64,000 bases of DNA from Dehalococcoidia bacterium (GCA_965263165.1 OZ253584.1:1013785-1077784); one strand, 5' to 3'; shown: positions 6,705 to 30,600, counted from the first letter of the stretch. Notes: generated by a model not told the origin, from the letters alone. Translations and numbers: made by a program.

Positions 6705-7829
6705 ATGCCCGGAGTTGTCGACGCCGACACGCATATCATTGAGCCGAGCGCGATTTGGGAAAGCATCGACGAGGGCATGTGGCCCCGCCGTCCCGTGCAA
6801 ATCAAAGTCCCCGGAGACACCGTCTACGGCAAGTCCAACGCCTTCTGGCTGATAGACGGGAATATCTTTCCGCGGCCTGCGGGCAAGGGCGGGTTCGGGC
6901 TGCACACTCCTTCAGGGGCGGACAGAGAGATCGAGCGCAAGGACATCCACATGGGCTCGCGCGAGATGACCGACGTGGCGGTCCGTCTGCAGGACATGGA
7001 CGCTCGCGGCGTGGACATCCAGGTGGTGTACCCCACCCTCTTCCTCATCTACATCACCGACGACGTTGACCTAGAGGTCTCGCTGTGCCGAGCCTACAAC
7101 GACTTCATGGGCAGGGCCAGTAACGAGTCCGGCGGCCGCATCAGGTGGGTCGTGATCCCGCCCCTCCACTCCATTGACGACTCCATCCAGGAGATTCGAA
7201 AGGGCAAGGAGGACGGGGCGGTTGGCGTTTTCTTCCGGGGCATCGAGGGGGAGAGGTCCGTAGCGGACCCCTACTTCTACCCGATCTATGAAGAGGCGAA
7301 CAGCTTGGACATCCCCATTACTATCCATACGGGGGCCGGTTCCAGGGCAATCTCCAGTGCGTTCGACTTCGACCTGAGCACGCCGTTTGCCCACGTGCGC
7401 ATGATTCCCCTGATGGCTTTCAGGGACATCGTTGGCAACAAAATCCCTGAGAAGTTCCCAGGCCTCCGCTTTGCCTTCGTGGAGGCGGCGGCTTCCTGGG
7501 TGCCCTATATGCTGCACGTCCTGCGGCGCTTCGCCCGCGCCACCATCCAGCTTTCCGGCTCAGGGCCGGACAGGGCGGACAACGGCTGGGGGCCGCAGCT
7601 CTTCCAAGATTACAACCTCTACGTCGCCTGCGAAGCCGACGAGAACCTACCGGTGCTGCTCCAGTACACCGGCGGCGACAATATGATCATCGGGTCGGAC
7701 TACGGACACCAGGACCCCTCGGAGGAAGCGCAGTTGGTAAGGACGTTCCGTGCCCGCACCGACGTGCCCGCCGAGGCCGTCGAGCGCATCCTCTGCGACA
7801 ACCCTCACCGCCTGTACGGCCTGTCCTAA
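6705..7829 (+). CDS. Amidohydrolase_2 family metallohydrolase/decarboxylase
   Basis: VDADTHIIEP, DMDARGVDIQVVYPT, ITIHTG, FVEAAASW, IGSDYGH motifs; RBS AGGAGGAG. Confidence 0.88.
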   Translation: MPGVVDADTHIIEPSAIWESIDEGMWPRRPVQIKVPGDTVYGKSNAFWLIDGNIFPRPAGKGGFGLHTPSGADREIERKDIHMGSREMTDVAVRLQDMDARGVDIQVVYPTLFLIYITDDVDLEVSLCRAYNDFMGRASNESGGRIRWVVIPPLHSIDDSIQEIRKGKEDGAVGVFFRGIEGERSVADPYFYPIYEEANSLDIPITIHTGAGSRAISSAFDFDLSTPFAHVRMIPLMAFRDIVGNKIPEKFPGLRFAFVEAAASWVPYMLHVLRRFARATIQLSGSGPDRADNGWGPQLFQDYNLYVACEADENLPVLLQYTGGDNMIIGSDYGHQDPSEEAQLVRTFRARTDVPAEAVERILCDNPHRLYGLS

Positions 7830-7841
7830 GTACGGCGAGGG

Positions 7842-8807
7842 CTATGCCGCTCCTGCGTTCGCCAGCGCCTGCTGCACGACGTCCACGCCCACCGTCTCCG
7901 TGAAGGCAGCCAGCAGGCGGTTCGTGATGGGTCCTGGGAAAGGCCCCGGAACGGGAACCCGGTCCACCATCGAGATGGGTTCGATGAAGGGGCTGGCGGC
8001 GGTCAGGAAGACCTCTTCGGCGTTGTAGAGGTCGTGGACGTCAAGGTCGTCTTCCACCACCTCAATGCCCAAGCCGCGGGCTAGGTCCATGAGCGTGGAG
8101 CGGCTGACGCCCGGCAGGATGGTGCGCCGTTTGGAGGTCAGAAGCCGTCCCTGGTCCACCATGAAGAAGTTGGCGCGCGACGCCTCGGCGATGCACCCCC
8201 GCATATCCAGCATCAGGGCGATGGCTCCCGGCTCCGCTCGCTGCGCCTCGAGGTCGGCCATGGCGTGAGCCAGCTTGTTGTGCAGCTTGGACTTCACGTC
8301 CACGCTCTGGGGGTCGTCGACGCGGATGCGGGATGTCAGCAGGTGACCCCCTTCCAGATAGTGCTTGGCCATGGACTTCCAACGAATGGGGTCGTTGTGG
8401 AGCAGGACGGTGGGCCTGGGGGTGGGGCCGTCCGGGGTGGGGGCCACAACGCCGTCACCGCGGGTGATGCGCCAGACCATGCGAAAGTCGTCAGAGGGCC
8501 CCAAGAGATGGAGGTTGCTCTTGGTTACTTCGATGCTGAGATCCATCATCTCGCTCTGCGACATCTGCGGGTCTATGCGTAGATAGCGCAGCGACCGGTA
8601 CAGACGGTCGATATGTTCCTCGTATTGGTAGGGCTTGTGGGCGTAGGTGCGGGCCACATCGTAGGCGGCGTCTCCATAGAGGAAGCCGCGGTCATAGATG
8701 GAGATGGCGGCGTTGCACTCCTTGATGAACTCCCCGCTCAGGTAGGCGGTGCGCTCGGTATAGGTGGCGTCGCCCCTGGCGATGGCTGCGGCGGTTGCCT
8801 GTGTCAT
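7842..8807 (-). CDS. Class IV PLP aminotransferase (IlvE/D-amino acid aminotransferase-like)
   Basis: DRGFLYGD, EEHIDRLYRS, PLP lysine in VKSKLHN, EASRANFF, ILPGVSR. Confidence 0.9.
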   Translation of the reverse strand: MTQATAAAIARGDATYTERTAYLSGEFIKECNAAISIYDRGFLYGDAAYDVARTYAHKPYQYEEHIDRLYRSLRYLRIDPQMSQSEMMDLSIEVTKSNLHLLGPSDDFRMVWRITRGDGVVAPTPDGPTPRPTVLLHNDPIRWKSMAKHYLEGGHLLTSRIRVDDPQSVDVKSKLHNKLAHAMADLEAQRAEPGAIALMLDMRGCIAEASRANFFMVDQGRLLTSKRRTILPGVSRSTLMDLARGLGIEVVEDDLDVHDLYNAEEVFLTAASPFIEPISMVDRVPVPGPFPGPITNRLLAAFTETVGVDVVQQALANAGAA

Positions 8808-8901: not shown

Positions 8902-11085
8902 TTACGGAGACTGCCACGCGGCCGCCGCCTGCCGCCAGTCCAGTGAATCGTACATTGTGGGGTCGCTCTTGCGGCGGGGCTGAACGTCGAGAAGCATACC
9001 GCAGTTGGGGCAGGAAACCTCGCGCAGGATGAACAGGTCCACCCAGCCGAAGACGTTCCACCGGCTATAGGAATCGATGGGCACTTCTCGAAGATGGCCC
9101 TGCCGCCGAAAGTCCTCCGTGGCCGGCCCCAGGCGATGATGACAGCGCTGGCAATGCCAGGCGGGCGCGCCGTTGTCGGGGAACAGGCTCACAGCATCGC
9201 CCAAGGAAAGAATCGGAGTGATGTCCGTTCCGTCCGGCGACGCGATCGCGGGCGCGTCGCCGGGGCGCCGCTCGCAGCGCAGAGCGTCCCGAAGCGACGC
9301 CGTCTCATCAGCATCGATTGTCTTGCTCTGCGGGTCGATGACGACGCCGTAAACGGCGCGGCAGGCCTCAAGGGAGCAGGCGTCGGTGAGGTAGTCGGAG
9401 AGCACGCGCTGGGGGTCGCGCTCCAGGGGGTCGCCATAGCCAGCGCCGCCGGTCTGCACGGCCACGTAGACGTCCCCGCTGCTCAGCCTGACGACCTCCC
9501 GGGACTTGATGACGCGATCGCTGCGGGATGCGAGCTGCTCGTAGGCGTAGGGATAGTTCCCGGAGGCCATCTGTTCATAGACATCTGCGCCGCGAAGGAG
9601 GAAGCTGGGCTGTGCGGGTGCCGGCAAGCCTCCATAGAGCCCGCGGGCCTCCGGATAGGCTGAACACCCGGCCAGGTTGAGGAGTTGCATGCGGCTTCTG
9701 CCGCGGTGGGGCGTGAGCGCTTGCTCTGTGCCCAGCCCGCCCCGGAACTTGCCCGGGCCGCCCGTGTCGGACGTGTGCTTGCGATAGAGGTACAGCACCG
9801 GATAGAGGCGCTCGTAGACCTCTATATTGCCCAGGGCCATCATGGGCCCTCCGGGCAAGTGAACGGAGTCGGGGCCGTCGCGGAAGCTGAGAGCGCCGCC
9901 ACCACCGGCCTCGTCGATGAGGGTGATGGCGTAGGTCTCGCCTCTCCGGTTGAGGCCGGAGACCACGGGGCGCTTGGTGGAGGGGACCCAGTTTGCCTGA
10001 GCCTCGTCACGGTAGCGCTCGGTGGCTGCGAACATCTTGCTGACAGCGGTGGACACCAGGCTCTGGGCCAACGCCCCGACGGCCGTTGCCCCCTGCCCCA
10101 CGCCTGCGGGGTGCAGAGCGTGCACGATGGTGGCCGGCTTGGAAAGGACATCCACGTTGCGGAAGAAGGCGGCCGGGGCCCAGGGAAGATCGTAGCAAAG
10201 CTCCGTGAGGATGGATGCGATGGCGCACCCTTCCAGCAGGCTGCGCGTGGCGTTCACCATTGCCGGGGCCTGGTTGCTAGAGTCCCGGAAGTCCAGCGTC
10301 AGGCGATCCCCCTCCTTGGTGGCCACGAGCCTGACCCGGTACAACCTGCGGTAGTCCAGGAAGCCTTCCTGCCGCCAGGTCCCGTCCGGCAGCTCCCGCA
10401 GGCGGCGGGCGAAGGCCTCCTGGGCCAGGTCAAGGATCTGTTCCTGGACCTCCATGAACGTGTCCTTGCCGTACTGCTGGATGATTTCGCGCATGCGGGT
10501 GCGGGTGCGAGTGATGGCCGCCAGACGGCCTCGCATATCCAGCCCGTTGAACGCTGGGGTGCGGCTATTGCGCACGATCGCTTCTTCGATGTCGTTTCGG
10601 ACAACGCCGCGCTCAACGACCTTGACCGGCGGGATCAGGGGCGCTTCGCCGTAGATGTCCTTGGCCTGAGCGCCGTACCCGCCGGCAAGAGGGCCGCCGA
10701 CGTCCATCTCGTGGAGGGATACGCCGGTCCAGGCGACGATGTCGTCCTCCCAGAAGATGGGAGCGACCATGACGGTGTCGTTCTGGTGGGTCGCGCCTGC
10801 CCACGGGTCGTTGGTGTAGAAGATGTCGCCGTCGAAGATGCCGGGGTTTTCGGCGAACCGTTCGAGGACGTACTTGACCGTGACGTCGAAGCTCAGGGAC
10901 AGGGCCATGACGTAATGACCCACGGCCAGGGCCTCGCCGGAGGGCGTGATGATTGAAGAGTTGACGTCGTAGGCTTCATACACCGTCGGGGAGCCGGACG
11001 TGCGCACGGTGACCCCGATCTGCTCGTCGTTGATAGCCTGAAGCCGGTGACGAAGGACCTGCAACGTGACCGCATCGACAGCCAT
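8902..11085 (-). CDS. Hydantoinase B/oxoprolinase family subunit fused to a C-terminal acetone-carboxylase-gamma-like Zn domain
   Basis: NDPWAGATHQND and HEMDVGG metal motifs, TGGPGKFRGGLG, GGAGYGDPLER; extra C-terminal WHCQRCHH...LREVSCPNCG. Confidence 0.88.
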   Translation of the reverse strand: MAVDAVTLQVLRHRLQAINDEQIGVTVRTSGSPTVYEAYDVNSSIITPSGEALAVGHYVMALSLSFDVTVKYVLERFAENPGIFDGDIFYTNDPWAGATHQNDTVMVAPIFWEDDIVAWTGVSLHEMDVGGPLAGGYGAQAKDIYGEAPLIPPVKVVERGVVRNDIEEAIVRNSRTPAFNGLDMRGRLAAITRTRTRMREIIQQYGKDTFMEVQEQILDLAQEAFARRLRELPDGTWRQEGFLDYRRLYRVRLVATKEGDRLTLDFRDSSNQAPAMVNATRSLLEGCAIASILTELCYDLPWAPAAFFRNVDVLSKPATIVHALHPAGVGQGATAVGALAQSLVSTAVSKMFAATERYRDEAQANWVPSTKRPVVSGLNRRGETYAITLIDEAGGGGALSFRDGPDSVHLPGGPMMALGNIEVYERLYPVLYLYRKHTSDTGGPGKFRGGLGTEQALTPHRGRSRMQLLNLAGCSAYPEARGLYGGLPAPAQPSFLLRGADVYEQMASGNYPYAYEQLASRSDRVIKSREVVRLSSGDVYVAVQTGGAGYGDPLERDPQRVLSDYLTDACSLEACRAVYGVVIDPQSKTIDADETASLRDALRCERRPGDAPAIASPDGTDITPILSLGDAVSLFPDNGAPAWHCQRCHHRLGPATEDFRRQGHLREVPIDSYSRWNVFGWVDLFILREVSCPNCGMLLDVQPRRKSDPTMYDSLDWRQAAAAWQSP

Positions 11086-11094
11086 AGCCGCCTC

Positions 11095-13209
11095 CTAAAG
11101 ATCGACGCGAATGGCGCCGAAGGCGTCAACTTCGCCCTGTGCGCCGTTGGGAATGACAATGGTGTCGCCCGTGCGCTCGATGATGCACGGGCCCTTGAGA
11201 ACGTTGCCGTACCGCAACCTGCCGCCGTCGTAGACGTCTGCGGGAACGAAGCGGCCCAACGACGGGAAGTAGGCGTCTCGAACGCCCTCGAGCGCCGCGG
11301 TGGCGTCGGCGTTGGGTTGCCCGGCGGCCTGGCCCCTAGGCGGCGTCGCCGGCGAGGCCGCGCCGTCCACCCGGACCTTGACCACTTCCACCCCAACCTG
11401 GCTAAACCCGGAGCCCTGGCCGTAGATGTCCTCATACTGCCGTTCGAAGCGCTCCTGAAGGGCCGCGGCCTCCTCCGCCGAGACCTGCCCGCTGACGACG
11501 AGGGGCAACTCGTGGACTTGGAGACGGTATTTCATGAAGAGAGACCGCGTTATCCGCACGCGGTCTTCCGACCAGCCCTCCCTTGCGAACTGCTCCAAGA
11601 CCTGCCGCTCCAGGCTGGCGATGAGGCCGTTCAATGCGTTGCGGTCATTCTGGGTGAAGGGAGCGATCGCTATGAACGAGTGCTCCAGCGTGTGGATGAC
11701 GTCTCCTCGGACCATGCCCAGGGCTGAGAACACACTGGAGGCCTCGGGGACGTAGAGACTCTTGACGTGGAGGTCCTGGGCCAGGAAGGGGATGTGGATG
11801 CCGCTGGCGCCACCGTAGGCCAGCAGGGAGAACTCGCGGGGGTCGTGGCCGCTTTCGATGGTGAGCTTGCTGATCATGTCGGCCATGCGGGCGTTGACGA
11901 TGGTGAAAGCGCCCACGGCCATCTCCTCCATCGTCATTCCGACCTCGCGGCCGACGCGGCTCAACGCCTGCTCCGCTTTGGACTTGTCCAGGGATATCGC
12001 GCCGCCCAGCACTTGCGCGGGATTGAGATAGCCCAAGACGAGGTCGACGTCTGTGACCGTGGCTTCCTCCCCTCCCAGGCCATAGGCGGCCGGGCCGGGC
12101 CGGGCGCCGGCGCTTTCAGGGCCGACTTTGGGAACACCCGTTGCGTCTACGGAGACGATGCTTCCGCCTCCGGCGCCGATGGACTTGATGGCGACTTTGG
12201 GGCAATAGAAGGTGTACTTGTCCACCGCCGGAACCGTCTCCAGCAGCAGCTCGCCCTTGAGCAGCAGGCTCACGTCGAAGGAGGTGCCACCCATGTCGAC
12301 GCAGATGAGGTTGCCCTCGCCGTAGTTGTTGGAGAAGAGACGCCCGCCTATGGCCCCGCCGACCGGCCCCGAGTCGAGGGTCAGCAGCGGGTTCTGACAG
12401 GCATCGGGAACGCTGGTGAGGCCGCCCCGGCAGGTCATCATGAGCAGCCCGCCGGTAAGACCGTTCTCGCTGAGCCGCTCCTCGAGGCGCTGGGCGTACC
12501 GGGCCACTGCGGGGCCCAGGTAGGCGGTGAGAACCGCGCTCACCGTGCGCTCATACTCGCCGAGGACCGGGGCCACCTCGTGAGAAGAGGCGACGTAGAG
12601 GTTGGGGTAGGCCTCGGCTATGAGCCGGCGGGTGCGTTGCTCGTGCTCAGGGCGGGTGAACGACCAGAGGTAGGAGACGGCCAGGGATTCTGCGCCCTCC
12701 TGGCTGACCAGTTCCTGCGCGGCGGCGGCAACACCGGCTTCGTCCAGGGGACACAGCACCTCGCCCAGCGCGTCCACCCGTTCGGCCACGCCGCGAATGA
12801 GGGCGTGAGGCACGACGGGAGGCTCGGCCTTGAAGAGGCGGGACTGGTGGGCCACCTCTTCGGGCATAAGGCCGGCGCGCTTCTGCATGACGCGGCCTAT
12901 GAAGATGGTGTCCTCGAAGCCGCTGGTGGTGATCAGGCCGGTCCGAGCGCCCTTGCGCTCGAGCAGGGCGTTGGTGCCGACGGTGCAGCCGTGAATGAAT
13001 CCGGTGGTGTTCGAGAGAAGGGTCCGGAGGGGGATTCCGAGATGCTCGGACGAGGCTGCCAGCGCGTTCATGACCCCCAGCGACTGGTCTTCAGGGGTGT
13101 TGGGGCTCTTGGCCACGCTGGCGACGCGGCCGTCGGCCTCAAGGACGACACAATCGACGAATGTGCCGCCGATGTCGACGCCGATGCGATAGGGTCCATC
13201 TTCGGGCAT
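11095..13209 (-). CDS. Hydantoinase A/oxoprolinase family ATP-binding subunit
   Basis: IGVDIGGTFVD, HGCTVGTNALLE, DMGGTSFDV, SIGAGGGS, GPESAGARPGPAAY, YGGASG. Confidence 0.93.
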   Translation of the reverse strand: MPEDGPYRIGVDIGGTFVDCVVLEADGRVASVAKSPNTPEDQSLGVMNALAASSEHLGIPLRTLLSNTTGFIHGCTVGTNALLERKGARTGLITTSGFEDTIFIGRVMQKRAGLMPEEVAHQSRLFKAEPPVVPHALIRGVAERVDALGEVLCPLDEAGVAAAAQELVSQEGAESLAVSYLWSFTRPEHEQRTRRLIAEAYPNLYVASSHEVAPVLGEYERTVSAVLTAYLGPAVARYAQRLEERLSENGLTGGLLMMTCRGGLTSVPDACQNPLLTLDSGPVGGAIGGRLFSNNYGEGNLICVDMGGTSFDVSLLLKGELLLETVPAVDKYTFYCPKVAIKSIGAGGGSIVSVDATGVPKVGPESAGARPGPAAYGLGGEEATVTDVDLVLGYLNPAQVLGGAISLDKSKAEQALSRVGREVGMTMEEMAVGAFTIVNARMADMISKLTIESGHDPREFSLLAYGGASGIHIPFLAQDLHVKSLYVPEASSVFSALGMVRGDVIHTLEHSFIAIAPFTQNDRNALNGLIASLERQVLEQFAREGWSEDRVRITRSLFMKYRLQVHELPLVVSGQVSAEEAAALQERFERQYEDIYGQGSGFSQVGVEVVKVRVDGAASPATPPRGQAAGQPNADATAALEGVRDAYFPSLGRFVPADVYDGGRLRYGNVLKGPCIIERTGDTIVIPNGAQGEVDAFGAIRVDL

Positions 13210-13428
13210 CAAGTCCTCCGTGGCGTTGCCTGCGGCCCCAGGCGCTTGGGAGTGAGACCGTAGGTATCCTGGCCTTTCAGGCGAAAGCCGGAAGCCGGAA
13301 AGCGTTCATTCATTTCATGCGCAAGGCGAAACGCCATACGGCCTCCGAGCGGCGGCGTAGAAACACGGCACCAACCCCGGCCACGTTCACGCTTGCGCCG
13401 CAAGCGGCGGGCGAACTGGAAGCGGAGG

Positions 13429-15210
13429 CTAGCTGGGCTTCGCGTCGTCCGATGCAGCGCCCGCAGGGACGGCGACCTCCCGCATCGCCCTGCGCAGGTC
13501 GCGGGTTGCGTCCTCGACAATCTGGAGGGTGTCCGGGTCTATGACCACGCCATAGTCGCGATGCGCTCCCTCAACCGAGAGCAGTTCATCCAGGACATCT
13601 TCGCGCACCATCGCCGGGTCGCGCTCCAGAGGGTCGCCCCAGCCGCCGCCGCCGCCGCGGGTTGTCCGGATCCCGTCATCATCGCCTAGCCAGCGTTCAA
13701 TGGACTCGCCGCCGCCAAGGTGCTCGGACTGGCCGTCGTTATAGAGGATGTCCGCCTCGTTGGGTATACCCTGAACGCCACCGCAGAGAGGCGGAGCGGG
13801 ATATTTTCCTCCCCAGACCATGTAGTTGACCAGGGCCGTGTGGTCAAGAATCTTGATGACGGTGCGCGTGCCGGGGCCACCCCGCCACTTGCCGGGCCCA
13901 CAGGAGTCGGTCATGAACTCGCGCTGCTCCACGCGGTGCGGATACTGAATCTCGTGCATCTCCGCCGTGGTGTAGGCCATGCCGCCCCGCATACCAGAGC
14001 CGCCGCCCCAGCCGTCCAGCCCGTACGTGCCGCCCGGTCCGGCGTGCATGGTCACGAACGGTAATGCCACGTAGCGGTCGCCGGAGCGGGGGTCTGTGCC
14101 GGAAATGACGCCGGTGACCCTGGTGTCCCAGGGGTGGCCGACCTTCTCCGGCAGGGCTTGGGATAACGCCAGAGTGACTGCCTGGGCGATCTCGGCGCCT
14201 GGGTGGAGCGTGCAGAAACCGGTGGGCGAGGCGTCGGTGGGATTGACGAGGGTGCCCTCCGGCAGGATCATCTGGACCGGCCGGAAGATGCCGTCGTTCT
14301 TGGGGATTGACTCGTCGAGAACGCTGGACAGAGCCAAGAAGGCGTAGCTCAGTGAATTACCTGCACCGCTGTTGGCGAACCCCGTTGTCTGGGGGTCTGT
14401 GCCGCTGAAGTCCATCTTCAGCTTGCCGTTGCCGATGGTGATGTCAACCTGGATCTTCAGGTCCCACTGGTAGAAGCCGTCCGAGTCCATGAATGCGACG
14501 CCGGTATAGACGCCAGCCGGCCAGGACGCCACTTCAGCAGTGAACAACCTCTCGGCGTAGTCGAGGGAGTACTCCGAGGCTTCCTTGACTGCCTCGATGC
14601 CGTACTTGGCGATGAGGCCGCGGATGCGCTTCTCCGCCACGCGGCATGAAGCGATCATGGCGCTGACGTCGCCGATGGTCCATGCCTTGAACCGGGTGTT
14701 GCGCACCACCCAGTCAAAGCGGTCCTGCTTGAGTTGCCCGCGGTCGTAGAGCTTGAAGGGAGGGTAGCGAACGCCCTCTTCGAAGATCTCGGTGGCGGCT
14801 GGGTACATGCCGCCGGGCCGTGCGCCGCCTCCCGTGCCGTCGGGCAGATGAGACCGGACAGAAACGATGAACGCCACGGCGCCATCGTGGAACACGGGCA
14901 GGGCGATGGTGGTGTCGCCTAGGTGGGAGCCGCCGGAGTAGGGGTCGTTATTGATGAACAAGTCGCCGTCGTTCACGTCTCCAGGGAACGCATCGAGGAC
15001 GGCCCTCACCGAATGCTTTATCGCAGCCATGAGCACCGGCGAGCCGAGGCCCTGGGCAATGGCGCGACTCTGTGGGTCCAGGATGGCCGTGGAGAAATCG
15101 CGGCACTCGTTGGCGATGGGCGACCGGCTGGTGCGCTCCATGGAGACGGTCATCTCCAGCGCCGCTGTGTCCAGCGCGTTGCGGATAATCTCTCTGGTGA
15201 TGGTGTCCAT
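13429..15210 (-). CDS. Hydantoinase B/oxoprolinase family subunit
   Basis: MDTITREIIRNAL, NNDPYSGGSHLGD, HLPDGTGG, SCGPGKWRGGPG, GGGGGWGDPLER. Confidence 0.92.
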   Translation of the reverse strand: MDTITREIIRNALDTAALEMTVSMERTSRSPIANECRDFSTAILDPQSRAIAQGLGSPVLMAAIKHSVRAVLDAFPGDVNDGDLFINNDPYSGGSHLGDTTIALPVFHDGAVAFIVSVRSHLPDGTGGGARPGGMYPAATEIFEEGVRYPPFKLYDRGQLKQDRFDWVVRNTRFKAWTIGDVSAMIASCRVAEKRIRGLIAKYGIEAVKEASEYSLDYAERLFTAEVASWPAGVYTGVAFMDSDGFYQWDLKIQVDITIGNGKLKMDFSGTDPQTTGFANSGAGNSLSYAFLALSSVLDESIPKNDGIFRPVQMILPEGTLVNPTDASPTGFCTLHPGAEIAQAVTLALSQALPEKVGHPWDTRVTGVISGTDPRSGDRYVALPFVTMHAGPGGTYGLDGWGGGSGMRGGMAYTTAEMHEIQYPHRVEQREFMTDSCGPGKWRGGPGTRTVIKILDHTALVNYMVWGGKYPAPPLCGGVQGIPNEADILYNDGQSEHLGGGESIERWLGDDDGIRTTRGGGGGWGDPLERDPAMVREDVLDELLSVEGAHRDYGVVIDPDTLQIVEDATRDLRRAMREVAVPAGAASDDAKPS

Positions 15211-21895: not shown

Positions 21896-21971
21896 CACCG
21901 CCTCCTTTGCTCCCTGTCCAACAGGGGCATTCCCGTTCTGCAAGAGCACTTCACATCAGCGATTCCCTATT

Positions 21972-23639
21972 CTACTCTCGTTTGCCATAGGCGCGCTCCG
22001 CCCCCGCCGGCGTGAGCAAGCCGTCCTCTATGTCATCCCGCACCAGGGATGACTCGCGGAGGCCGGGATCCCCGTAGCCGCCGCCACCGCCGTACACGAC
22101 GCTGAGACGCTCGCCGCCGCTCATCATAACCCGGTGGGCGACCTCGCCGACGCCCAGGAAGCGTTCCTCCGGGGCGCCCGCCTCAATGACGATGGCATTC
22201 CCCACGCCAGGCTTGCCTCCGTTGGCGCCGGACGCCGCGTTGATGCTTCCTTCGCCAAAGGCCGACAGGAGCAACCGATAGGAGGGCAGCCGGAAGACCT
22301 GCCTGAAGGCCGGTCCGCCGCGCTGCCTGCCCGCGCCGCAGGAGTCGGCGACAAACTCGCGTGACTCCACGGACAGTCCAACCTGGCTCTCCAGGATTTC
22401 GACAGAGGGAGCTTCCGCTCTGAGGAGGGCGGGCGATGGATGGCCGTCGGCGGAGAGGCTTGCGGCCTGCCAGCCCAGGATCGGATTGATGGCGTAGGCA
22501 TTGCCGCGCTTTCCTTCCACGCCCCCCAGTACAACGTACGGGTCCACGGGAAAGCTTTGTTGGACCAGACCGGGCGCCGCCTTGTTAACGGCATCAGCAA
22601 CTGCCTCGGCGATGCGGGGGCCCGTATACCACGTGCACAGGCTGGTGCAGGCGGGGTCGGCGGGGTTCACGATGCTGCCCTCCGGCAGGGTGCAGCGGAC
22701 GCGTTGGAGGATGCCCTCGTTGAGGGCTGCGCCCTCCGGCAGCAGCGACAGTAGGGGAAGCAGCGCAAAAGATGCCGTGTTGGCCTCCGGGCTGTTGAGG
22801 GGCCCGGTTACCTTTGGACTGGCGCCGGTGAAGTCCAAGTGGACGCCCTCCGGCCCAGCTTCCAGCGTCACTGCGATTTCCACGTTCTCTGCCCTGTTGT
22901 AGTCGGAGTCCAGCCGGGCCGAACCCCGATAGCTTCCGGGAGGGATGGATTCAAGGGCCGCCCGCATGGCCCGGCCGCTTCGCTCAATGGCGAGGCTGGA
23001 CGCCGCTTCGAGAAGCGCCGGGCCGCGCTGCTCGGCGAGCGCCTGAAGGCGCGCCCTGCCGTGACGGGTGGCGGCGACGATGGCCTTGATATCGCTCTCG
23101 TAGATGCGGGGTGTTCTGCTGTTGGCGGTGAGTCGCCGCAGGACATCGGGAAAGACGACGCCATCCCGAGCGACCTGAACGCCGGGAATGATGTCGCCCT
23201 CCTGATAGACCTCCCATGCTAGGGGGTAGACGCCGCTCAGCCCTGCACCCCCAACGTCGGTGAACCGGGCGCGCCCCACGGCCGCCCAGCGCGGCGCCTC
23301 TCTTTCGCACACCAACGTGGCGAAGGTTATGTCCGGAAGCGCGCCGCCCCCCTTGTAGGGGTCGTTAATCAGGACGGTGTCGCCGTCGTTGAGGCCGCCG
23401 GAAGCGAAGACGGCCAGCCCTTCAAGCGTCTGTGTTTTGAGTGGGACAAGGTGGGCGGGGTGGTGAACGTCGGCGGCAACCAGACGTCCTCCGTTCCTCA
23501 GGTCGACTAGGCCCATGGCGAAGTCCGCGAACCCTGATCGCGCCGCCGATTCCGCGCCGCGCCGGTAGACGGCCGTCATCTCGGCGGTTACGGCCCGGAG
23601 GCGGTTGACGAGTATTTGCATAGAGACGGGGTCTGCCAT
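21972..23639 (-). CDS. Divergent hydantoinase B-like subunit lacking the metal-binding histidines
   Basis: B-family scaffold (NDPYKGG, SCGAGRQRGGP, GGGGGYGDP), but GGGALPD and ARFTDVGG where paralogs have GGxH..D and H..D.GG. Confidence 0.85.
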   Translation of the reverse strand: MADPVSMQILVNRLRAVTAEMTAVYRRGAESAARSGFADFAMGLVDLRNGGRLVAADVHHPAHLVPLKTQTLEGLAVFASGGLNDGDTVLINDPYKGGGALPDITFATLVCEREAPRWAAVGRARFTDVGGAGLSGVYPLAWEVYQEGDIIPGVQVARDGVVFPDVLRRLTANSRTPRIYESDIKAIVAATRHGRARLQALAEQRGPALLEAASSLAIERSGRAMRAALESIPPGSYRGSARLDSDYNRAENVEIAVTLEAGPEGVHLDFTGASPKVTGPLNSPEANTASFALLPLLSLLPEGAALNEGILQRVRCTLPEGSIVNPADPACTSLCTWYTGPRIAEAVADAVNKAAPGLVQQSFPVDPYVVLGGVEGKRGNAYAINPILGWQAASLSADGHPSPALLRAEAPSVEILESQVGLSVESREFVADSCGAGRQRGGPAFRQVFRLPSYRLLLSAFGEGSINAASGANGGKPGVGNAIVIEAGAPEERFLGVGEVAHRVMMSGGERLSVVYGGGGGYGDPGLRESSLVRDDIEDGLLTPAGAERAYGKRE

Positions 23640-23642: not shown

Positions 23643-25727
23643 CTAGCTTCTCCGCCCGGCCTTGTGAGACGTTTCAATGATGACGCTGCTGTAGCGGTCA
23701 ACGTATGCTCTCTGGCCGGGATAGACGACGATGGTCGTGGTGGGGTACTCGGCGATGCAGGGGCCGGCCAACTCGTTGCCCGGCCGGAGCGACGGGCCGT
23801 CGTAGATCGGCAGGTCGGAAAAGCCCTGCTGGGCATCGAGACATACGGGCCGAGGTTCCTTGAGGGCCGCCGACGCATCGGGTCCGGCGAGGGGGCGCTC
23901 AGGGAGACCGGGTTTCTCGACGAGTCCCACCACGTCAACCTGGAGATTGACAACCTCCACGCCGGAGGCCAGGTCCCTGTAGGAGTAGAGCTGCTCGTGG
24001 AGGGTGTGGAAATCCTCCACCGCCTGTTCAAGGTCGGCGGCCGTAAGGCCTGAGTCCCGCGGTGTCAGGGGGACAGTGATTTCGTGGACCTCGCCGTGGT
24101 ATCGGAGGTCGGCAAAGCGGTCAACGCGCACGCCCAGCAGGTTCTCCTGGGGCAGCATGGCGTGGGCGGCCGCCGCCATCTCATCGAGGAGCCGGCCCAT
24201 TTCTACCGGGTCTATGCCGGCCAGAGCGCCCTGGAAGGTTCTGACCTCGGTGAACTTGAGGTCGGCCATCAGGTCGCCAAAGCCGCAAAAGACGGGGGCG
24301 ATCTCCGGTACGGTCACCGTGGGGATGCCGAGGTCCTCGGCCTGAAGGCCCGCATGAATGGCGGCGGCGCCGCCGAACGCCATGAGCGAGAAGTCCCGCG
24401 GGTCGTAGCCCCGCTGCACGGAAACCACTCGGATCCCGTCCGACATGTTGGCGTTGACGATGCGGAAGATGGCATGGGCGGCTTCAGTTACGCTCATGCC
24501 TAGCGGGTCACCTACGTACTCCCTGATGGCCCGTTCCGCCAGCGAAGGGTCCACGGAGAACTCGCCGGCGGCGAAGTTGTCTGGATTCAGCAGGCCCAGG
24601 ACCAAGTTGGCGTCGGTCACCGTTGGCTCGACGCCGCCCCGGCCGTAGCAGGCGGGACCGGGATTCGAGGAGGCGCTGCGCGGGCCAACCCGGAGCGCTC
24701 CCGCCTTGTCCACCCACCCAATGCTGCCCCCGCCGGCGCCGATGGAGTAGATCTCGATTCGGGGAACGGCAACGCGATACCGCTCCTCCCAGGTGTCGGT
24801 GGTCATTGTGGGCTTGGCCCGGTGAATCAGGCAGACGTCGTAGCTTGTGCCGCCCATGTCCGCGGTGATGATGTTGGGTTGGTCCATGCGCTCGGACAGG
24901 CTCAGTGCCCCGGTAACCCCCGCTGCTGGCCCGGAATGGAGGTAGTACACGGAGCGGCGGCGGGCATCTTCCACCGTGGCAACGCCGCCACTGGACTTCA
25001 TGAGGTAGAGATTGCGGCGGTAGCCCATCTCCGAGAGGCGGTCCCGCAGCGCGCCGAGGTAGCGGGACAGCCTGGGGCCGATGTAGCCGTTGACAGCCGT
25101 CGTGGAGACGCGTTCGAAGTCGCGTATCTGGGCCAAGACCTCGGAGGATAGGGATATGTAACAGTCAGGGAACTCCTGTTGGATCAAGCGCTTGACCGCC
25201 TGCTCGTGGGAGTCATTGAGGAATGAAAAGAGGAAGCACACGCCTATGGACTCCACGCCCTGGTCCCTGAGGCGCCGGATGGCTTGAACGGCTTCCTCCT
25301 CGTCCAGCGGGGTGATTTCCTCTCCCAGGTAGTTGAGGCGCTCCGTAACGCCCAACCTCCGCCGCCGGGGCACGATGGGGAAGGGCGGCTCCAGCTTGAC
25401 GTTGAACATGCTCTCTTTGATGCCGCGGCGGATCTCGATCTCGTCGCGGAAGCCCTTGGTCACCAGCAAGCCCAGGTTGGCGCCCACGTGTTGGATCATG
25501 GCGTTGGTTGCCACCGTCGTGCCCAGCACGATGACCTCGGTGTCCGCCAGAAAGCGTTGCAGTGGTAGCTGGAAATTGTCCGCGGCCTTTGTCAGGGCGG
25601 TGAGAACCGCCCTGCTTTCGTCTCCGGGGGTCGAGAGGGTCTTGGTGGTGTACAGATCCTGACCCTCGGCAGCCACAACCAAATCGGTGAAGGTGCCGCC
25701 GACGTCAACGCCGACTCTGAATTGCAT
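23643..25727 (-). CDS. Hydantoinase A/oxoprolinase family ATP-binding subunit
   Basis: VGVDVGGTFTD, GTTVATNAM, SGPAAG, DMGGTSYDV, SIGAGGGS, GPRSASSNPGPACYG, FGGAAA. Confidence 0.94.
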   Translation of the reverse strand: MQFRVGVDVGGTFTDLVVAAEGQDLYTTKTLSTPGDESRAVLTALTKAADNFQLPLQRFLADTEVIVLGTTVATNAMIQHVGANLGLLVTKGFRDEIEIRRGIKESMFNVKLEPPFPIVPRRRRLGVTERLNYLGEEITPLDEEEAVQAIRRLRDQGVESIGVCFLFSFLNDSHEQAVKRLIQQEFPDCYISLSSEVLAQIRDFERVSTTAVNGYIGPRLSRYLGALRDRLSEMGYRRNLYLMKSSGGVATVEDARRRSVYYLHSGPAAGVTGALSLSERMDQPNIITADMGGTSYDVCLIHRAKPTMTTDTWEERYRVAVPRIEIYSIGAGGGSIGWVDKAGALRVGPRSASSNPGPACYGRGGVEPTVTDANLVLGLLNPDNFAAGEFSVDPSLAERAIREYVGDPLGMSVTEAAHAIFRIVNANMSDGIRVVSVQRGYDPRDFSLMAFGGAAAIHAGLQAEDLGIPTVTVPEIAPVFCGFGDLMADLKFTEVRTFQGALAGIDPVEMGRLLDEMAAAAHAMLPQENLLGVRVDRFADLRYHGEVHEITVPLTPRDSGLTAADLEQAVEDFHTLHEQLYSYRDLASGVEVVNLQVDVVGLVEKPGLPERPLAGPDASAALKEPRPVCLDAQQGFSDLPIYDGPSLRPGNELAGPCIAEYPTTTIVVYPGQRAYVDRYSSVIIETSHKAGRRS

Positions 25728-25778: not shown

Positions 25779-26894
25779 CTACGGGTCGAAGTGGAAGATA
25801 CGGGCCGTGTTCAGCGCGGCAATCTTCGCCTTCTCATCCTCCGGAACATCCTTCAGTATCTCATCCACGATCTGCCGCGAGCGGGGGAACGTGGACTCGG
25901 CGTGGGGATAATCAGACCCCCAGCACAGGTTGTCCACCCCGATGTACTCCCGCATCCTCATGCCGATGGCGTCTTCCTGGAAGCTGATGAAGCAGTTGCG
26001 GCGCCAGAAGTCGCTGGGAACGGCGCCGTCCTGGAACTGGTAGCCCTTCCTGCCGGAGGGGCGCTCCCGGTAGTAGTAGTCCATGCGCTCGATGAAGAAG
26101 GGCGCCCAGGCCACCTCGAACTCCACGGATCCTGCGCGAATCTTCGGGAACCGTTCGAACACGCCGGCGAACATCATGGCGCTCAATCCCCGGCGCATGC
26201 CGATCTCCTTGTTGACCATGGACACCGGGTCCATGTTGATGCCCACCACGTCCACCGGCGCCTTGGAGCGGGCGCATCCGGTGTGGAAGTTGATGCTCAT
26301 GTCCAGGTCTTGGAACGCAGCCCACAGGGGATCGTACATCGGGTCGCCGAGGGGGACATCCAAGGGCAGCGCTGCAATCATGGCGCCCACCATGCCGAGG
26401 TTGGCGCAGCGCTGGAGCTCGGCGACGCCTTCCTGAACGTCATCTATATTGACCAGCGCTATGGCCTTGAGGCGCTTGGGATGAGCGGCGGCGAACTCCG
26501 CCACGTAGTCGTTGTAGCCGCGCATGCACGCCGTCACAAGGTCGCTGTCCGGCACGGCAAAGAGGGACAGGGCAACGGACGGGTAGAGCACTCCGCCTTC
26601 CACGCCGTCCACGTCCATGTCGGACACCTGAGCGTCGGGGTCGAGGCCGCGGAGATGAGGGCTGTCGTACTTGCCGACAAGCTCGATCTTGTTGGGGTCG
26701 TCAAAGCGGAGACCCGGCTGTACGTTGGACATGACGCCCAACCGGTGCTTGTCGTCCACGATCCACTCGTCGAACTCCTCCCCGACCTTGAGCACAGGCG
26801 CCCGGTCCTGGAACTTGGGGTCCACGCGTCCTTTCCACAGGCCAGCGGGCTCGGTGATGTGGTTGTCGGATGAAATCAGCCGATACTCGGTCAC
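25779..26894 (-). CDS. Amidohydrolase_2 family protein
   Basis: ISSDNHITEP, DMDVDGVEGGVLYPS, NFHTG, WGSDYPHAESTFP; GTG start with RBS GGAGG. Confidence 0.9.
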   Translation of the reverse strand: MTEYRLISSDNHITEPAGLWKGRVDPKFQDRAPVLKVGEEFDEWIVDDKHRLGVMSNVQPGLRFDDPNKIELVGKYDSPHLRGLDPDAQVSDMDVDGVEGGVLYPSVALSLFAVPDSDLVTACMRGYNDYVAEFAAAHPKRLKAIALVNIDDVQEGVAELQRCANLGMVGAMIAALPLDVPLGDPMYDPLWAAFQDLDMSINFHTGCARSKAPVDVVGINMDPVSMVNKEIGMRRGLSAMMFAGVFERFPKIRAGSVEFEVAWAPFFIERMDYYYRERPSGRKGYQFQDGAVPSDFWRRNCFISFQEDAIGMRMREYIGVDNLCWGSDYPHAESTFPRSRQIVDEILKDVPEDEKAKIAALNTARIFHFDP

Positions 26895-27096: not shown

Positions 27097-28842
27097 CTAG
27101 CCCGTTTGGCCGTCTGGGCGCGAGGCCCCTGCCGCCGCCGGCTTCCGGGGTTCGGCCAAGGCCGCGACGACCTTTTCCTCGGGCAGGCCGTAGACGTCCC
27201 TGGCGGCTTCCGGGGTGACGTAGCCATCCATGATGTCCTGCGCCACCCGGTCGGGGTCGCGTTCTCTAGGATTTCCGATGCCGCCCCCGCTGCCGGTGTA
27301 CATGCGAAGAATATCGCCTTCGTTGAGCGGAACGTTGGATACGAGTTGGGAAAACCTCTGGGCGTTTTCCTGGCCGGGGTTGATCATCAGGTGTCCCACA
27401 TCGCCGTTGCCGCCGCCGGCCATGCCCCTGGGCTGCACTCGGTACCTTCCGCCCCCTCCCGAAAACCGGCTCTCGCTGAGGATGAGGTAGTCGCGGACGT
27501 ATCCGGCCCCGCCGCGGAACTTCCCAGCGCCCCCGGAGTCCTGTACGACGCTGAAGCGCTGCAGGCGGACGGGGAACTCGGACTCCACCACCTCGACGCA
27601 GGTGACCTTGGGGCCGGAGCCCCCGTGACCGCAGCCCGTCCAGCCGTCGCCGCCGCCGTAGGCCCCGCTGCCGCCCGGCATAAGCTCATAGTGCACAATG
27701 GGGCGTCCCGTGGGTCCGTAGCTGCCCAGCGTAAACAGTCCTCCGGAGCCGTGGTTGGCGCGAGGCGGTCGGCCCGATGCGTCCGAGAGAGCGGTTATGA
27801 CCATGTCTTCTATGGCGGGCAGGATGCTGGAGTAGAAACCTAGCGGCGCCGGGTAGATGGGGTCGACTACGGTTCCGGGCCGGAATTTGTAGTCGATCAC
27901 CTTGGTGACGCCGTGATTGTTGGCGGGAGGGGACTCCATCATGGCAACGATGGCGTAGAGGCAACTCCCCCGGATGATGGGGGGCCGGATGTTCAGCGGG
28001 CCGCGGTTCTGCACTGCGGACTCGGAGAAATCCAGCAGGAGGTTGGAACCTTCCTTGGTAATCTTCACGCGCAGGCGCACCGGCGTATCCAGGTCCACCA
28101 AGTCGTTGTCGAGGTAGGAATCGGCCTCGTAGATGCCGTCCTTCCACTTGGAGATCTCCGCCCGCAGGTGCTGCTCGGTCTTCCGCCCGACTTCCTCGAA
28201 CACCTCCAAGACCGTATCCCTGCCGTAGCGGTCCATCAGCTCGGTCAGTCTGCGGGCGCCGACGCTCCACATGGGGCCGGCCTGGGAGTTGTAGTCGCCG
28301 AGGAGGAGTTCGGGGGTGCGGGTGTTGGCCCAGATGAGATTCTCGGTCTCCTTGACGACCTTGTAGCGGCTCATGTACTTGACGGGGGGGACCTGCATGC
28401 CCTCGCCGAAGAGGTCGCGGGCATTGGCGGCGCGGCTTCCCGGCGAAAGGCCTCCGATGTCGCCCTTGTGGGTGATGCCGATGCCGAACGCCACGAGGTC
28501 GTCGTGGTGGAAGATGGGGACGATGGCGGCGCTGTCGAGGGAGTGGGCGCAGCCGGACTCGTAGGGGTGGTTGACGAAGAAGCAGTCGCCGTCCTCAATC
28601 TCGTCGTAGGAGTAGTACTTCAGCAGTCCCTGGATGCAATCGGGGTAGGAGCCCATGTGGATGGGGATGCCGGCGAACTGGGCGACCACGCGCCCCTCCC
28701 TGTCGACGAGGCCGCAGGAAAGGTCGTGGGTCTCGCGGATGAGGGTGGAGTAGCCGGTGCGGAAGGTGTCGATCTGCATCTCCCGGACGATGCCGTCAAG
28801 GCGGGAGCGGATGACTTCGAACAGGATGGGGTCGACGGGCAT
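27097..28842 (-). CDS. Hydantoinase B/oxoprolinase family subunit (tandem paralog 2)
   Basis: VNHPYESGCAHSLD, THKGDIGG, DSGGAGKFRGGAG, GSGGGIGNPRER. Confidence 0.92.
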   Translation of the reverse strand: MPVDPILFEVIRSRLDGIVREMQIDTFRTGYSTLIRETHDLSCGLVDREGRVVAQFAGIPIHMGSYPDCIQGLLKYYSYDEIEDGDCFFVNHPYESGCAHSLDSAAIVPIFHHDDLVAFGIGITHKGDIGGLSPGSRAANARDLFGEGMQVPPVKYMSRYKVVKETENLIWANTRTPELLLGDYNSQAGPMWSVGARRLTELMDRYGRDTVLEVFEEVGRKTEQHLRAEISKWKDGIYEADSYLDNDLVDLDTPVRLRVKITKEGSNLLLDFSESAVQNRGPLNIRPPIIRGSCLYAIVAMMESPPANNHGVTKVIDYKFRPGTVVDPIYPAPLGFYSSILPAIEDMVITALSDASGRPPRANHGSGGLFTLGSYGPTGRPIVHYELMPGGSGAYGGGDGWTGCGHGGSGPKVTCVEVVESEFPVRLQRFSVVQDSGGAGKFRGGAGYVRDYLILSESRFSGGGGRYRVQPRGMAGGGNGDVGHLMINPGQENAQRFSQLVSNVPLNEGDILRMYTGSGGGIGNPRERDPDRVAQDIMDGYVTPEAARDVYGLPEEKVVAALAEPRKPAAAGASRPDGQTG

Positions 28843-28866
28843 GAATCCTCCTCGCTGGCCTTCGCT

Positions 28867-30600
28867 CTAGGCGGAAGGGGAGCTTGATGCGGCCGCTTTC
28901 TTCTGAGGGCCGGCGAGGGCCTCTTGCACCTTGTCCTCGAAGAGTCCGTACACTTCCCGCGCCGCAACGGGCGTCACGTACCCATCCATGATGTCGCCCA
29001 TAACCCGGTCCCGGTCCCGCTCCTTGGGGTTTCCGACGCCGCCACCGCTGCCGGTCTTCATCCGGATCACCCCCCCCTTGCCCAGAGGGATGTTGGACAC
29101 GAGTTGCGAGTACCGTTGTTCGTCCTCAAGGCCGGGGTTGGTGGTGACAAGCCCCAGGGAGCCGTCGCCTCCGCCCGCCAATCCCTTCGGGGCAACGCGA
29201 TAGCGGATACCGCCGCCTGAAAAGCGGCTCTCGCTGAGGAGCAGGTATTCCCGCAGATAGGCGCAGCCTCCCCGGAATGTTCCTGGGCCTGAGGAGTCGG
29301 GCACGATTCTGAACTGTTGCATCAGCACGGGGAACTCGGTCTCCACGATTTCGACGCAGGTGATTTTGGGGCCGGAGTGGCCGTGGCCGCAGCCGGTCCA
29401 ACCGTCGCCGCCGCCATAGGCGCCGGTCCCGCCAGGCATCAGTTCGTAGTGGACGATGGGCCGGCCCGTGGGCCCGTAACTGCCCATCGTGAACAGGCCC
29501 CCGACGCCGTGGTTGGCGCGCGCGGGTCGTCCCGAAGCCTTGGAAAGGGCAACGATGACCATGTCCGTGACGACGGGGAGGACGCTGGAGTAGAAGCTCA
29601 CCGGCGCCGGATAGATGGGGTCGAGCACGCTTCCCGGCCGGAATTTGTAATCAATGACGCGGGTGACGCCGTGGTTGTTCGGAGGAGGGTCCTCCATCAT
29701 GGCGACGATCGCGTACAGGCAGGTCCCCCGAATAATGGGCGGACGGACGTTGAGGGGTCCCCGGTTCTGGTCCGCCGTTTCCGAGAAGTCCAAGAGCAGG
29801 TCAGAGCCTTTCTTGGTGATCTTGACGTGTAGCCGCACCGGCGTATCCAGGTCCACCAAGTCGTTGTCCAGGAAGGATTCAGCTTCGTAGATGCCGTCCT
29901 CCCACTTGGAGATTTCGGCCCGCAGATGCCGTTCCGTCTGCCTTCCGACCTCTTCAAAGACCTCCAGCACCGCGTCCTTGCCGTGCTTGTCCATGATCTC
30001 GGTCACGCGCCGAGCGCCAACGCTCCACATTGGGCCGGCTTGGGCGTTGTAATCGCCGAGGAGAAGTTCAGGCGTGCGGCTGTTGGCCCAGATGAGATTC
30101 TCGGTCTCCTTGATCACCTTGTGGCGGCTCATGTACTTGACCGGGGGGACCTGCATGCCCTCACCGAAGAGGTCGCGGGCGTTGGCGGCCCTGCTTCCCG
30201 GCGAAAGGCCGCCGATGTCGCCTTTGTGCGTGATGCCGATGCCGAAGGCGACGAGGTCGCCCTGATAGTGGATTGGTACAATGGCGGCGCTGTCGAGGCT
30301 GTGGGCGCAGCCGGACTCGTAGGGGTGGTTGACGAAGAAGCAGTCCCCCTCTTCGATCTCGTTCTCGGGGTAGTACCGGTAGAGTCCCTTGATGCATTCC
30401 GGATAGGAGCCGAGGTGGATGGGGATGCCGGCGAACTGAGCGACCACGCGCCCCTCTCTGTCGACGAGGCCGCAGGAAAGGTCGTGGGTCTCGCGGATGA
30501 GGGTGGAGTAGCCGGTGCGGAAGGTGTCGATCTGCATTTCCCGGACGATGCCGTCCAACCGGGAGCGAATGACCTCGAAGATGATGGGATCAACAGGCAT
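28867..30600 (-). CDS. Hydantoinase B/oxoprolinase family subunit (tandem paralog 1)
   Basis: Same motifs as 27097-28842; N-terminus MPVDPIIFEVIRSRLDG nearly identical. Confidence 0.92.
   Translation of the reverse strand: MPVDPIIFEVIRSRLDGIVREMQIDTFRTGYSTLIRETHDLSCGLVDREGRVVAQFAGIPIHLGSYPECIKGLYRYYPENEIEEGDCFFVNHPYESGCAHSLDSAAIVPIHYQGDLVAFGIGITHKGDIGGLSPGSRAANARDLFGEGMQVPPVKYMSRHKVIKETENLIWANSRTPELLLGDYNAQAGPMWSVGARRVTEIMDKHGKDAVLEVFEEVGRQTERHLRAEISKWEDGIYEAESFLDNDLVDLDTPVRLHVKITKKGSDLLLDFSETADQNRGPLNVRPPIIRGTCLYAIVAMMEDPPPNNHGVTRVIDYKFRPGSVLDPIYPAPVSFYSSVLPVVTDMVIVALSKASGRPARANHGVGGLFTMGSYGPTGRPIVHYELMPGGTGAYGGGDGWTGCGHGHSGPKITCVEIVETEFPVLMQQFRIVPDSSGPGTFRGGCAYLREYLLLSESRFSGGGIRYRVAPKGLAGGGDGSLGLVTTNPGLEDEQRYSQLVSNIPLGKGGVIRMKTGSGGGVGNPKERDRDRVMGDIMDGYVTPVAAREVYGLFEDKVQEALAGPQKKAAASSSPSA

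Follow-up and report, generated by a model that had tools for sequence, protein, structure and literature searches.

A Dehalococcoidia gene cluster with six hydantoinase B-type and two A-type subunit genes, and the possible sharing of A kinases by surplus B subunits

A 64,000-nucleotide stretch of DNA from a Dehalococcoidia bacterium (GCA_965263165.1, OZ253584.1:1013785-1077784; hereafter the window, with coordinates counted from its first letter) harbors, at positions 6,705 to 30,600, a catabolic locus with six genes for B-type but only two for A-type subunits of the ATP-dependent hydantoinase/oxoprolinase/ketone-carboxylase family. The excess of B genes recurs in related genomes, and the B genes lacking an A gene directly upstream encode full-length proteins with intact metal sites. 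With moderate confidence, and from comparative sequence analysis, we read the surplus B proteins as working catalytic subunits that would share a few A kinases through homo- or heterodimeric B cores.

Results and Discussion

Six B genes and two A genes

Genes were called from an open reading frame (ORF) listing and Pfam scans of the 64-kb window. The eight subunit genes are as follows.

8902..11085, minus strand: B1, Hydantoinase_B subunit of 727 amino acids (Pfam E 9e-106); starts 9 nucleotides past A1
11095..13212, minus strand: A1, ATP-binding A subunit (Pfam Hydant_A_N, Hydantoinase_A and Hydant_A_C)
13429..15360 (maximal ORF, likely start ~15213), minus strand: B2, Hydantoinase_B subunit (Pfam E 2e-137)
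18355..20280 (maximal ORF, ~598 amino acids from 20151), minus strand: B3, Hydantoinase_B subunit (Pfam E 7e-138)
21972..23639, minus strand: B4, Hydantoinase_B subunit; starts 3 nucleotides past A2
23643..25727, minus strand: A2, ATP-binding A subunit (Pfam Hydant_A_N, Hydantoinase_A and Hydant_A_C)
27097..28842, minus strand: B5, Hydantoinase_B subunit (Pfam E 2e-135), second of a tandem B pair
28867..30600, minus strand: B6, Hydantoinase_B subunit (Pfam E 4e-135), first of the tandem B pair; the ORF extends to 30681, with the likely ATG at 30600

An earlier reading made from the DNA alone (the sequence-only reading) had counted six B-type genes (8902, 13429, 18355, 21972, 27097 and 28867) and two A-type genes (11095 and 23643), and Pfam agrees on all of them. 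The six B proteins cover the full PF02538 profile (E 1e-101 to 1e-138); A1 and A2 carry the ASKHA motifs (phosphate-1 DIGGTFVD in A1 or DVGGTFTD, phosphate-2 DMGGTS and the PGP adenosine motif); no B or A gene of the cluster is truncated; and tblastn with all A and B proteins against the whole window found no extra A or B copy. The Pfam, tblastn and ASKHA motif results together establish that the count of six B to two A is correct. The usual 1:1 hydA-hydB order holds only for A1-B1 and A2-B4, while B2, B3, B5 and B6 have no A gene directly upstream. Pairwise identity is 81% for B5/B6, 59% for B2/B3, 24-31% for the other B pairs and 37% for A1/A2.

The B excess in related genomes

The excess of B genes is not an assembly artifact, since the same gene order is found at the related loci L005, L006, L093/L094 and L095, and contigs 100% identical to the window occur in independent public runs. 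The relatives come from a scan of one genome per species (L005 and L006) and from look-ups with B4 homologues (L093/L094 and L095). L005, a Dehalococcoidia metagenome-assembled genome, and L006, "Chloroflexi bacterium SAR202-VII-2", hold syntenic loci at 96% and ~78% nucleotide identity to the window, respectively, and it is this synteny that assigns the window's host to SAR202 group VII (Chloroflexota). The part of the cluster from B6 to B2 recurs in at least four related assemblies (L005, L006, L093/L094, L095). The order in L093/L094 and L095 is B6, RidA, B5, AH2b (Amidohydro_2), A2, B4, AH3 (Amidohydro_3), two tandem B3-type genes, importer and B2; L093 thus has seven B genes beside a single A2, with B3 duplicated in tandem and the B2 orthologue (84% identity) in the same position. 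As the cluster recurs and the number of B genes differs among relatives, the B excess is a stable feature of the lineage, with a copy number that varies. The RidA (Ribonuc_L-PSP) gene of these relatives lies between B6 and B5 (L093:2159-6501, L094, L095).

A recent, strain-specific origin of the B5/B6 pair was considered and rejected, both orthologues being present in L005, L006, L093 and L095. Across three genomes the B5 and B6 orthologues form separate clades in the tree, which indicates that the duplication is older than the split of those genomes. A megablast search of a plasmid collection gave short ABC-ATPase matches only, and the best tblastn match of B3 in that collection (35% identity) was too distant to show the context of the B2/B3 clade.

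It is scarcely credible that the extra B genes lack a function of their own, being redundant copies, decaying duplicates or artifacts of assembly. Such an account would be in keeping with the variable B copy number among relatives (the extra B3 in L093) and with the near-identical blocks that B5 and B6 have in common. It is opposed by the full-length ORFs and intact motifs, by the retention of orthologues in several species and the 100%-identical contigs in independent runs, and by ratios of nonsynonymous to synonymous substitution (dN/dS) of 0.05-0.16 in those cluster genes that were measurable, B4 included, which indicate purifying selection; the surplus B genes for which such selection was measured are B3 and B6 (0.126 and 0.048 against L006). 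Putative transcripts over B2, B3, B4, B5 and B6 also speak against it. In two runs whose RNA status is guessed, short near-identical contigs were found for B2, the AH3/B3 junction, B4, A2, AH2b, B5, B6 and the binding protein of the importer, that of the binding protein being the longest.

B genes without an adjacent A gene

A set of 80 metagenome loci, 8 genome loci and the results of several look-ups with queries from the B5 clade were scanned with A and B profile hidden Markov models. Among the 80 metagenome loci, A lies directly upstream of B in 47 and nearby but not directly upstream in 3; no A is found upstream in 9, despite at least 2.3 kb of visible sequence, and 21 were too short to tell. 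The downstream side can be seen at 33 of the A-first loci, and in 14 of these two distinct tandem B genes follow the one A gene (A-B-B'); the operons come from soil and other metagenomes (L023-L050, e.g. L024:6481-12274 and L027:7827-13537). First-position B, second-position B' and canonical single B fall into three separate, well-supported clades (100% support for B versus B'), marking A-B-B' as an old, conserved operon type. The metal sites are intact in both B and B', the pocket residues being canonical in B and different in B'. Judged by its gene order and phylogeny, A-B-B' is a case in which a single A gene stably accompanies two distinct B genes. These operons resemble the window in having two distinct B genes to one A and in the intact metal sites of their tandem B genes; they differ in that A lies directly upstream and B and B' are old, separate lineages, whereas the B6-B5 pair arose by a younger duplication (81% identity) and lacks a directly upstream A. 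To our knowledge, no A-B-B' enzyme has been characterized.

The clade of B5 and B6 is marine and largely from SAR202, and comprises 33 B sequences in the sample against 7 in the matching A clade. It is made up of lone genes, tandem pairs of at least four independent origins, one triple and few A-B pairs, and on these counts this lineage has multiplied its B genes but not its A genes. No A gene lies within 10 kb of the lone or tandem B genes at L001, L002, L007-L009, L011, L046, L065 and L086. For example, in L002 (7669-11737), L009 and L011 an Amdase-family (Asp/Glu/hydantoin-racemase-like) gene directly precedes the lone B and an Amidohydro_2 gene is divergent from it, an arrangement kept in three genomes; the neighbors of the lone B genes in L007/L008 are SDR dehydrogenases and an MFS transporter.

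Several further arrangements were seen in the survey. A short marine contig with short flanks has three consecutive Hydantoinase_B genes (L017:523-4881). Tandem B-B genes without an adjacent A (L001:7188-12078 and L003:8201-12192) are each followed by a small ORF without a Pfam match (115 and 143 amino acids), and the pair in L001 is preceded by two HbpS-like genes. In L096 (6928-11569) and L097 (5086-9727), a Hydantoinase_B domain is fused to an NAD domain of the beta-hydroxyacid-dehydrogenase type in a protein of 858 amino acids; the fusion gene directly follows an A gene and has an NMT1 binding protein, an SDR and an Amdase-like gene as neighbors.

The main rival to shared A kinases, which we regard as somewhat unlikely, is that the surplus B proteins are stand-alone, ATP-independent metallohydrolases, whose homodimers or B-B' heterodimers would act, after loss of the link to A, on rings or amides requiring no phosphorylation. 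It would account for the loci listed above at which B occurs with no A in the 10 kb around it, for the conservation of lone arrangements between species together with private neighbors (Amdase-like plus Amidohydro_2, or SDRs plus an MFS transporter), for an intact metal tetrad in every lone or tandem copy, and for a B expansion that no A expansion matches. Against it, a literature search gave no characterized B-only enzyme of the family, and the nearest relatives of the lone copies (80-86% identity) are paired with an A gene in L010 and L012. The segments that touch A in the caprolactamase CapAB are the best conserved parts of these proteins, the B-dehydrogenase fusion keeps its adjacent A gene among much the same SDR, Amdase and NMT1 neighbors, and the extra B genes of the window share operons with A genes.

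Matching of A and B lineages

In trees built with FastTree, in which the branches of B1 and B4 are long, the phylogeny of the A proteins mirrors that of the B proteins. A third A protein, A3, and its neighbor B7 fall with B5 and B6 into one marine clade, A1, A2 and B1-B4 lie outside it, and the B2/B3 lineage is sister to B4. B7 directly follows A3 in L010 and L012, where Amidohydro_2 genes precede A3; B7 is 80-81% identical to B5/B6, and A3 is 36% identical to A2. The congruence of the trees suggests that B5 and B6 belong with an A3-type subunit encoded elsewhere, and B2, B3 and B4 with A2. The predicted lineage-matched partners are thus A1 with B1; A2 with B4, B3 and B2; and A3 with B7, B5, B6 and the lone copies. 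The NCBIfam scores given below accord with this matching. Runs containing the window at 100% identity also yield, at similar depth, contigs 97% identical to the A3-B7 locus of L012, so that the organism of the window very probably has A3-B7 as well. Read depth was used here because exact-sequence look-up, meant to place both on one contig, returned no record for either B5 of the window or P0121, the A3 orthologue.

The sequence-only reading had proposed that shared A subunits pair with interchangeable B subunits. Sharing fits the comparative data, but interchangeability with both local A subunits is contradicted by the congruent trees. In its strict version, with A1 and A2 pairing interchangeably with all six local B proteins, the proposal is in our view improbable. 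The eight genes are clustered, co-oriented and conserved as a block, as this version would lead one to expect; however, cophylogeny puts B5 and B6 with an A3-type subunit that is encoded elsewhere and only 36% identical to A2, and B1 is distant from the other B proteins, resembles the beta subunit found in acetophenone carboxylase (Apc), has a Cys-rich tail of its own and is tightly coupled to A1. In addition, the A-B interface of CapAB buries about 3000 Å2, which makes free exchange among partners that are only 25-35% identical unlikely.

That reading had also named matching orphan A genes elsewhere in the genome as an observation that would overturn it. A third A gene, A3, does exist outside the locus, but it is paired with B7 and is not an orphan. 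Queried with A3, a set of 5.8 billion proteins yielded orthologues in SAR202-VII assemblies (98% and 90% identity), with the next match at 68% and other taxa at 55-59%, and no close paralogues; B5-like paralogues at 65-86% identity number at least seven across related genomes. We therefore think it very improbable that subunits are 1:1 after all, with the missing A genes scattered through the genome: the discovery of A3 outside the locus is in its favor, while the pairing of A3 with B7, the absence of close A3 paralogues alongside at least seven B5-like ones, and the lack of any A in the loci around lone B genes are against it.

Contact surfaces of the paralogues

CapAB is an A-B-B-A tetramer with a core of two B subunits joined through residues 129-174; contacts to A come from helix 1 and from the last helix of domain 1. 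Substrate pocket and hydrolytic metal site both reside in B; the substrate, once phosphorylated by A, is passed to the metal site through a tunnel that connects it with the ATP site of A. Mapped onto this framework, the lone B of L008 and the A3-paired B7 of the same genome are 86% identical overall and 79% in the barrel; in helix 1 and in the B-B interface alike they are 100% identical, and in the last helix 97%. B5 and B7 are 83-96% identical in the A- and B-contact segments. B5 and B6 are most alike in the contact segments, have near-identical blocks in common, and differ mainly in the C-terminal barrel and at one pocket position. This pattern fits paralogues that keep their surfaces for the same A and for each other while the substrate-facing parts diverge.

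The altered metal site of B4

The metal ligands of the caprolactamase B subunit are D41, H99, D102 and H124, and each Ala mutant is inactive (<0.015% conversion). The window and 92 related loci together supplied 119 full-length B sequences for alignment; this D-H-D-H tetrad is intact in 116 of them, including all lone and tandem copies and B1, B2, B3, B5 and B6 of the window (D40, H100, D103 and H125 in B5). The three deviants are B4 and its orthologues in L005 and L006, in which Ala and Arg replace two His. The corresponding motifs of B4 are NDPYKGGGALPD and ARFTDVGG, giving the pattern D-DRD (His99 to Ala and His124 to Arg) with two of the four ligands lost, and the B4 orthologue of L093 has the same altered motifs.

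We rejected the possibility that B4 is a pseudogene, as its ORF is intact in all relatives, the substitutions are conserved and dN/dS is about 0.1. Against L006, dN/dS is 0.105 for B4 and 0.044 for A2, with ranges of 0.105-0.12 for B4 and 0.03-0.04 for A2. In a search of 5.8 billion proteins, B4 orthologues were found only in close SAR202-VII relatives (76-99% identity), the next matches being at 32%. By these sequence comparisons B4 is a fast-evolved, lineage-specific derivative.

The A1-B1 pair and characterized members of the family

On domain content and gene order, A1-B1 and A2-B4 are two complete A-B pairs of the ATP-dependent hydantoinase/oxoprolinase/ketone-carboxylase family. With CapAB (Pseudomonas jessenii, PDB 6YRA), HyuAB, OplAB and N-methylhydantoinase (PDB 7hk5), the cluster shares an ASKHA A kinase and a D-H-D-H B subunit, and A1-B1 and A2-B4 also hold to the A-then-B order with coupled starts. 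Unlike in the CapAB-type enzymes, the window has six B to two A genes, four B genes without A directly upstream, and one B, B4, without two of the metal ligands. NCBIfam scores against CapAB (NF050156/NF050157) are 658 bits for A2, 541 for A1, 339 for B3, 238 for B5 and 192 for B1; A2 is thus more CapA-like than A1, and B3 is the most CapB-like of the three B proteins scanned (B1, B3, B5). All lie far under the equivalog cut-off of 1000 bits, so none is a caprolactamase orthologue.

B1 is only 24-28% identical to the other B proteins, and its best relative in the PDB is Apc beta (5l9w_A). Its scores against ApcD (205 bits) and CapB (192 bits) are both low, with a slight edge to ApcD. A1 and A2 score about 390 bits against ApcC; the cut-offs of ApcA, ApcC and ApcD (1250-1500 bits) are not reached. 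The C-terminal 130 amino acids of B1 (window 8902-9300) are Cys-rich (CxxC...CxxC) and give a sub-threshold match to Acetone_carb_G (E 1.2e-3, 19.5 bits against a cut-off of 21). A1-B1 is a distinct pair, its B1 closer to a carboxylase beta subunit.

The same superfamily includes acetone carboxylase AcxABC (PDB 5M45/5SVB) and acetophenone carboxylase Apc (PDB 5L9W). The gamma subunit of acetone carboxylase is a separate Zn-binding subunit with four Cys, which the tail of B1 may resemble, going by the weak Pfam match above (19.5 bits); in contrast to Apc and Acx, gamma, alpha' and epsilon have no gene of their own in the cluster. In Apc, each B-like beta goes with two A-like subunits (alpha and alpha'). 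It was considered as a precedent for extra B subunits and rejected, its duplicated subunits being A-like; the sole described departure from 1:1 is therefore an extra A-like subunit and not an extra B.

Accessory genes and genomic neighborhood

The remaining genes of the locus and its upstream boundary are listed here.

6663..7829, plus strand: AH2a, Amidohydro_2 enzyme (Pfam PF04909, E 3.5e-27), convergent with the cluster
7842..8807, minus strand: class IV aminotransferase of the branched-chain or D-amino-acid type (Pfam PF01063 Aminotran_4, E 6e-36), final gene of the A1-B1 unit
15330..16202, minus strand: ABC importer permease (Pfam BPD_transp_1)
16219..17067, minus strand: ABC importer ATPase (Pfam ABC_tran)
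17132..18283, minus strand: NMT1/THI5-type (SsuA-like) substrate-binding protein (Pfam NMT1)
20189..21949, minus strand: AH3, Amidohydro_3 enzyme of the D-aminoacylase/cyclic-amidohydrolase superfamily (Pfam PF07969, E 2e-39)
25779..26894, minus strand: AH2b, Amidohydro_2 enzyme (Pfam PF04909), first gene of the A2 unit
30753..30828, plus strand: tRNA-Ala(GGC) (ARAGORN), upstream edge of the cluster and putative attachment site of an island

Pfam bears out the accessory genes named in the sequence-only reading (two Amidohydro_2 enzymes, a D-aminoacylase-like enzyme, a class IV aminotransferase and an SsuABC-like importer), and the ORF listing its placement of all genes from 7842 to 30600 on the minus strand. 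In the NCBIfam scans AH2a had no match, AH3 gave weak partial matches only, the aminotransferase matches (BCAT, D-amino-acid transaminase) were all under their cut-offs, and the binding protein scored far under the cut-off of SsuA_fam. Paralogues of AH2a adjoin lone B genes (L002/L009/L011) and A3 (L010/L012), and AH2b lies directly upstream of A2 also in L005, L006, L093 and L095.

The genes follow one another in the direction of transcription as B6, B5, AH2b, A2, B4, AH3, B3, binding protein, ABC ATPase, permease, B2, A1, B1 and aminotransferase. They probably form three transcription units: B6-B5; AH2b-A2-B4-AH3-B3-importer-B2; and A1-B1-aminotransferase. As a scan for promoter and terminator consensus sequences found sites no more often than in shuffled sequence, the units are drawn from intergenic gaps only, of 202 nucleotides between B5 and AH2b and 216 between B2 and A1, B2 lying upstream.

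Just beyond the downstream end of the cluster is an IS5-family transposase gene (DDE_Tnp_1 and DUF772; window 5377-6351). On the other side, the tRNA-Ala(GGC) gene is followed by a phage-type integrase gene (Arm-DNA-bind_3, Phage_int_M and Phage_integrase; 30986-32134), and ~21 kb (window about 30.83-51.7 kb) are absent from the syntenic locus L005. This stretch looks like an integrative island inserted at tRNA-Ala, directly upstream of B6.

A proposed mechanism and its weak points

Sharing of A subunits is suggested by three features taken together, namely the absence of an A3-like paralogue expansion to match that of B, the A-B-B' operon, and the contact segments of the lone B of L008. In the scheme that we favor, surplus B paralogues differing at pocket positions would form homo- or heterodimeric cores that join a limited number of A kinases. 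The B4/B3/B2 lineage would depend on A2, and B5, B6, the lone copies and the A3 neighbor B7 on an A3-type subunit encoded elsewhere. B4, which lacks the usual metal binding, would be a non-catalytic or altered partner of A2. The outcome would be a panel of ATP-dependent ring-opening enzymes, of the lactamase or hydantoinase type, for imported nitrogen-containing rings. In line with this scheme, component B of the Pseudomonas 5-oxoprolinase is reportedly inactive alone and acts as a coupling protein for component A, an ATPase (Seddon, Li and Meister, 1980s).

The accessory genes (NMT1-type importer, Amidohydro_2, Amidohydro_3 and class IV aminotransferase, with RidA, SDR and Amdase-like genes in relatives) suggest a route of uptake of a nitrogen-containing ring, ATP-driven ring opening, further hydrolysis or decarboxylation, and transamination, in which the amidohydrolases and the aminotransferase would process the opened products. 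The deacylation and transamination proposed in the sequence-only reading as downstream steps are plausible from the gene families.

Several points weigh against shared A kinases. B4 is the sole B coupled to A2 and the one without two ligands, so that it may be non-catalytic and the apparently canonical A2-B4 pair is not of the textbook kind. For several lone B proteins, whose genes have no A within 10 kb, pairing could take place only in trans, with translation uncoupled. The genome may also contain orphan A genes from a different lineage. The contact and pocket positions were mapped through a B5-CapB alignment of 30% identity, with the interface taken from a prose description, and the high identity of the paralogues in the 5' half of their genes could stem from gene conversion and not from selection for A binding. 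Lastly, the evidence for expression of the cluster is weak, the contigs being short and the runs only guessed to be RNA.

A bolder form of A-kinase sharing, which we put forward as speculation and consider unlikely, is a combinatorial system in which two or three A kinases would be common to at least ten exchangeable B subunits. B4 would be a dead adaptor that docks A2 and heterodimerizes with active B3 or B2, one kinase would feed several hydrolytic sites, and the soil A-B-B' operon would be the fixed minimal form. If true, this would amount to a pseudoenzyme-scaffolded, modular ATP-dependent lactamase.

Implications

Paralogue expansions of flavin monooxygenases, enolases and dioxygenases have been described in SAR202 and read as widening the range of refractory organic substrates (Landry 2017, Saw 2020). 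The present case is like these in the organism group and in the many diverged paralogues of one family; it differs in the family concerned, and in that just one subunit of a two-subunit enzyme is expanded. Our literature search found no link between SAR202 and hydantoinase or oxoprolinase genes.

Members of the family are described as strict A:B (or A:A':B) complexes. The excess of B genes, a metal-less B under selection and the widespread A-B-B' operons suggest a more flexible subunit composition. The finding leaves the mechanism of the family standing and shows a conserved, selected imbalance of subunit genes. For biocatalysis, the expanded B set may offer new lactamase specificities. SAR202 bacteria are regarded as degraders of refractory dissolved organic matter, and an expanded set of ring-opening B subunits would be a candidate new route by which they reach stable amide and lactam nitrogen in the deep ocean.

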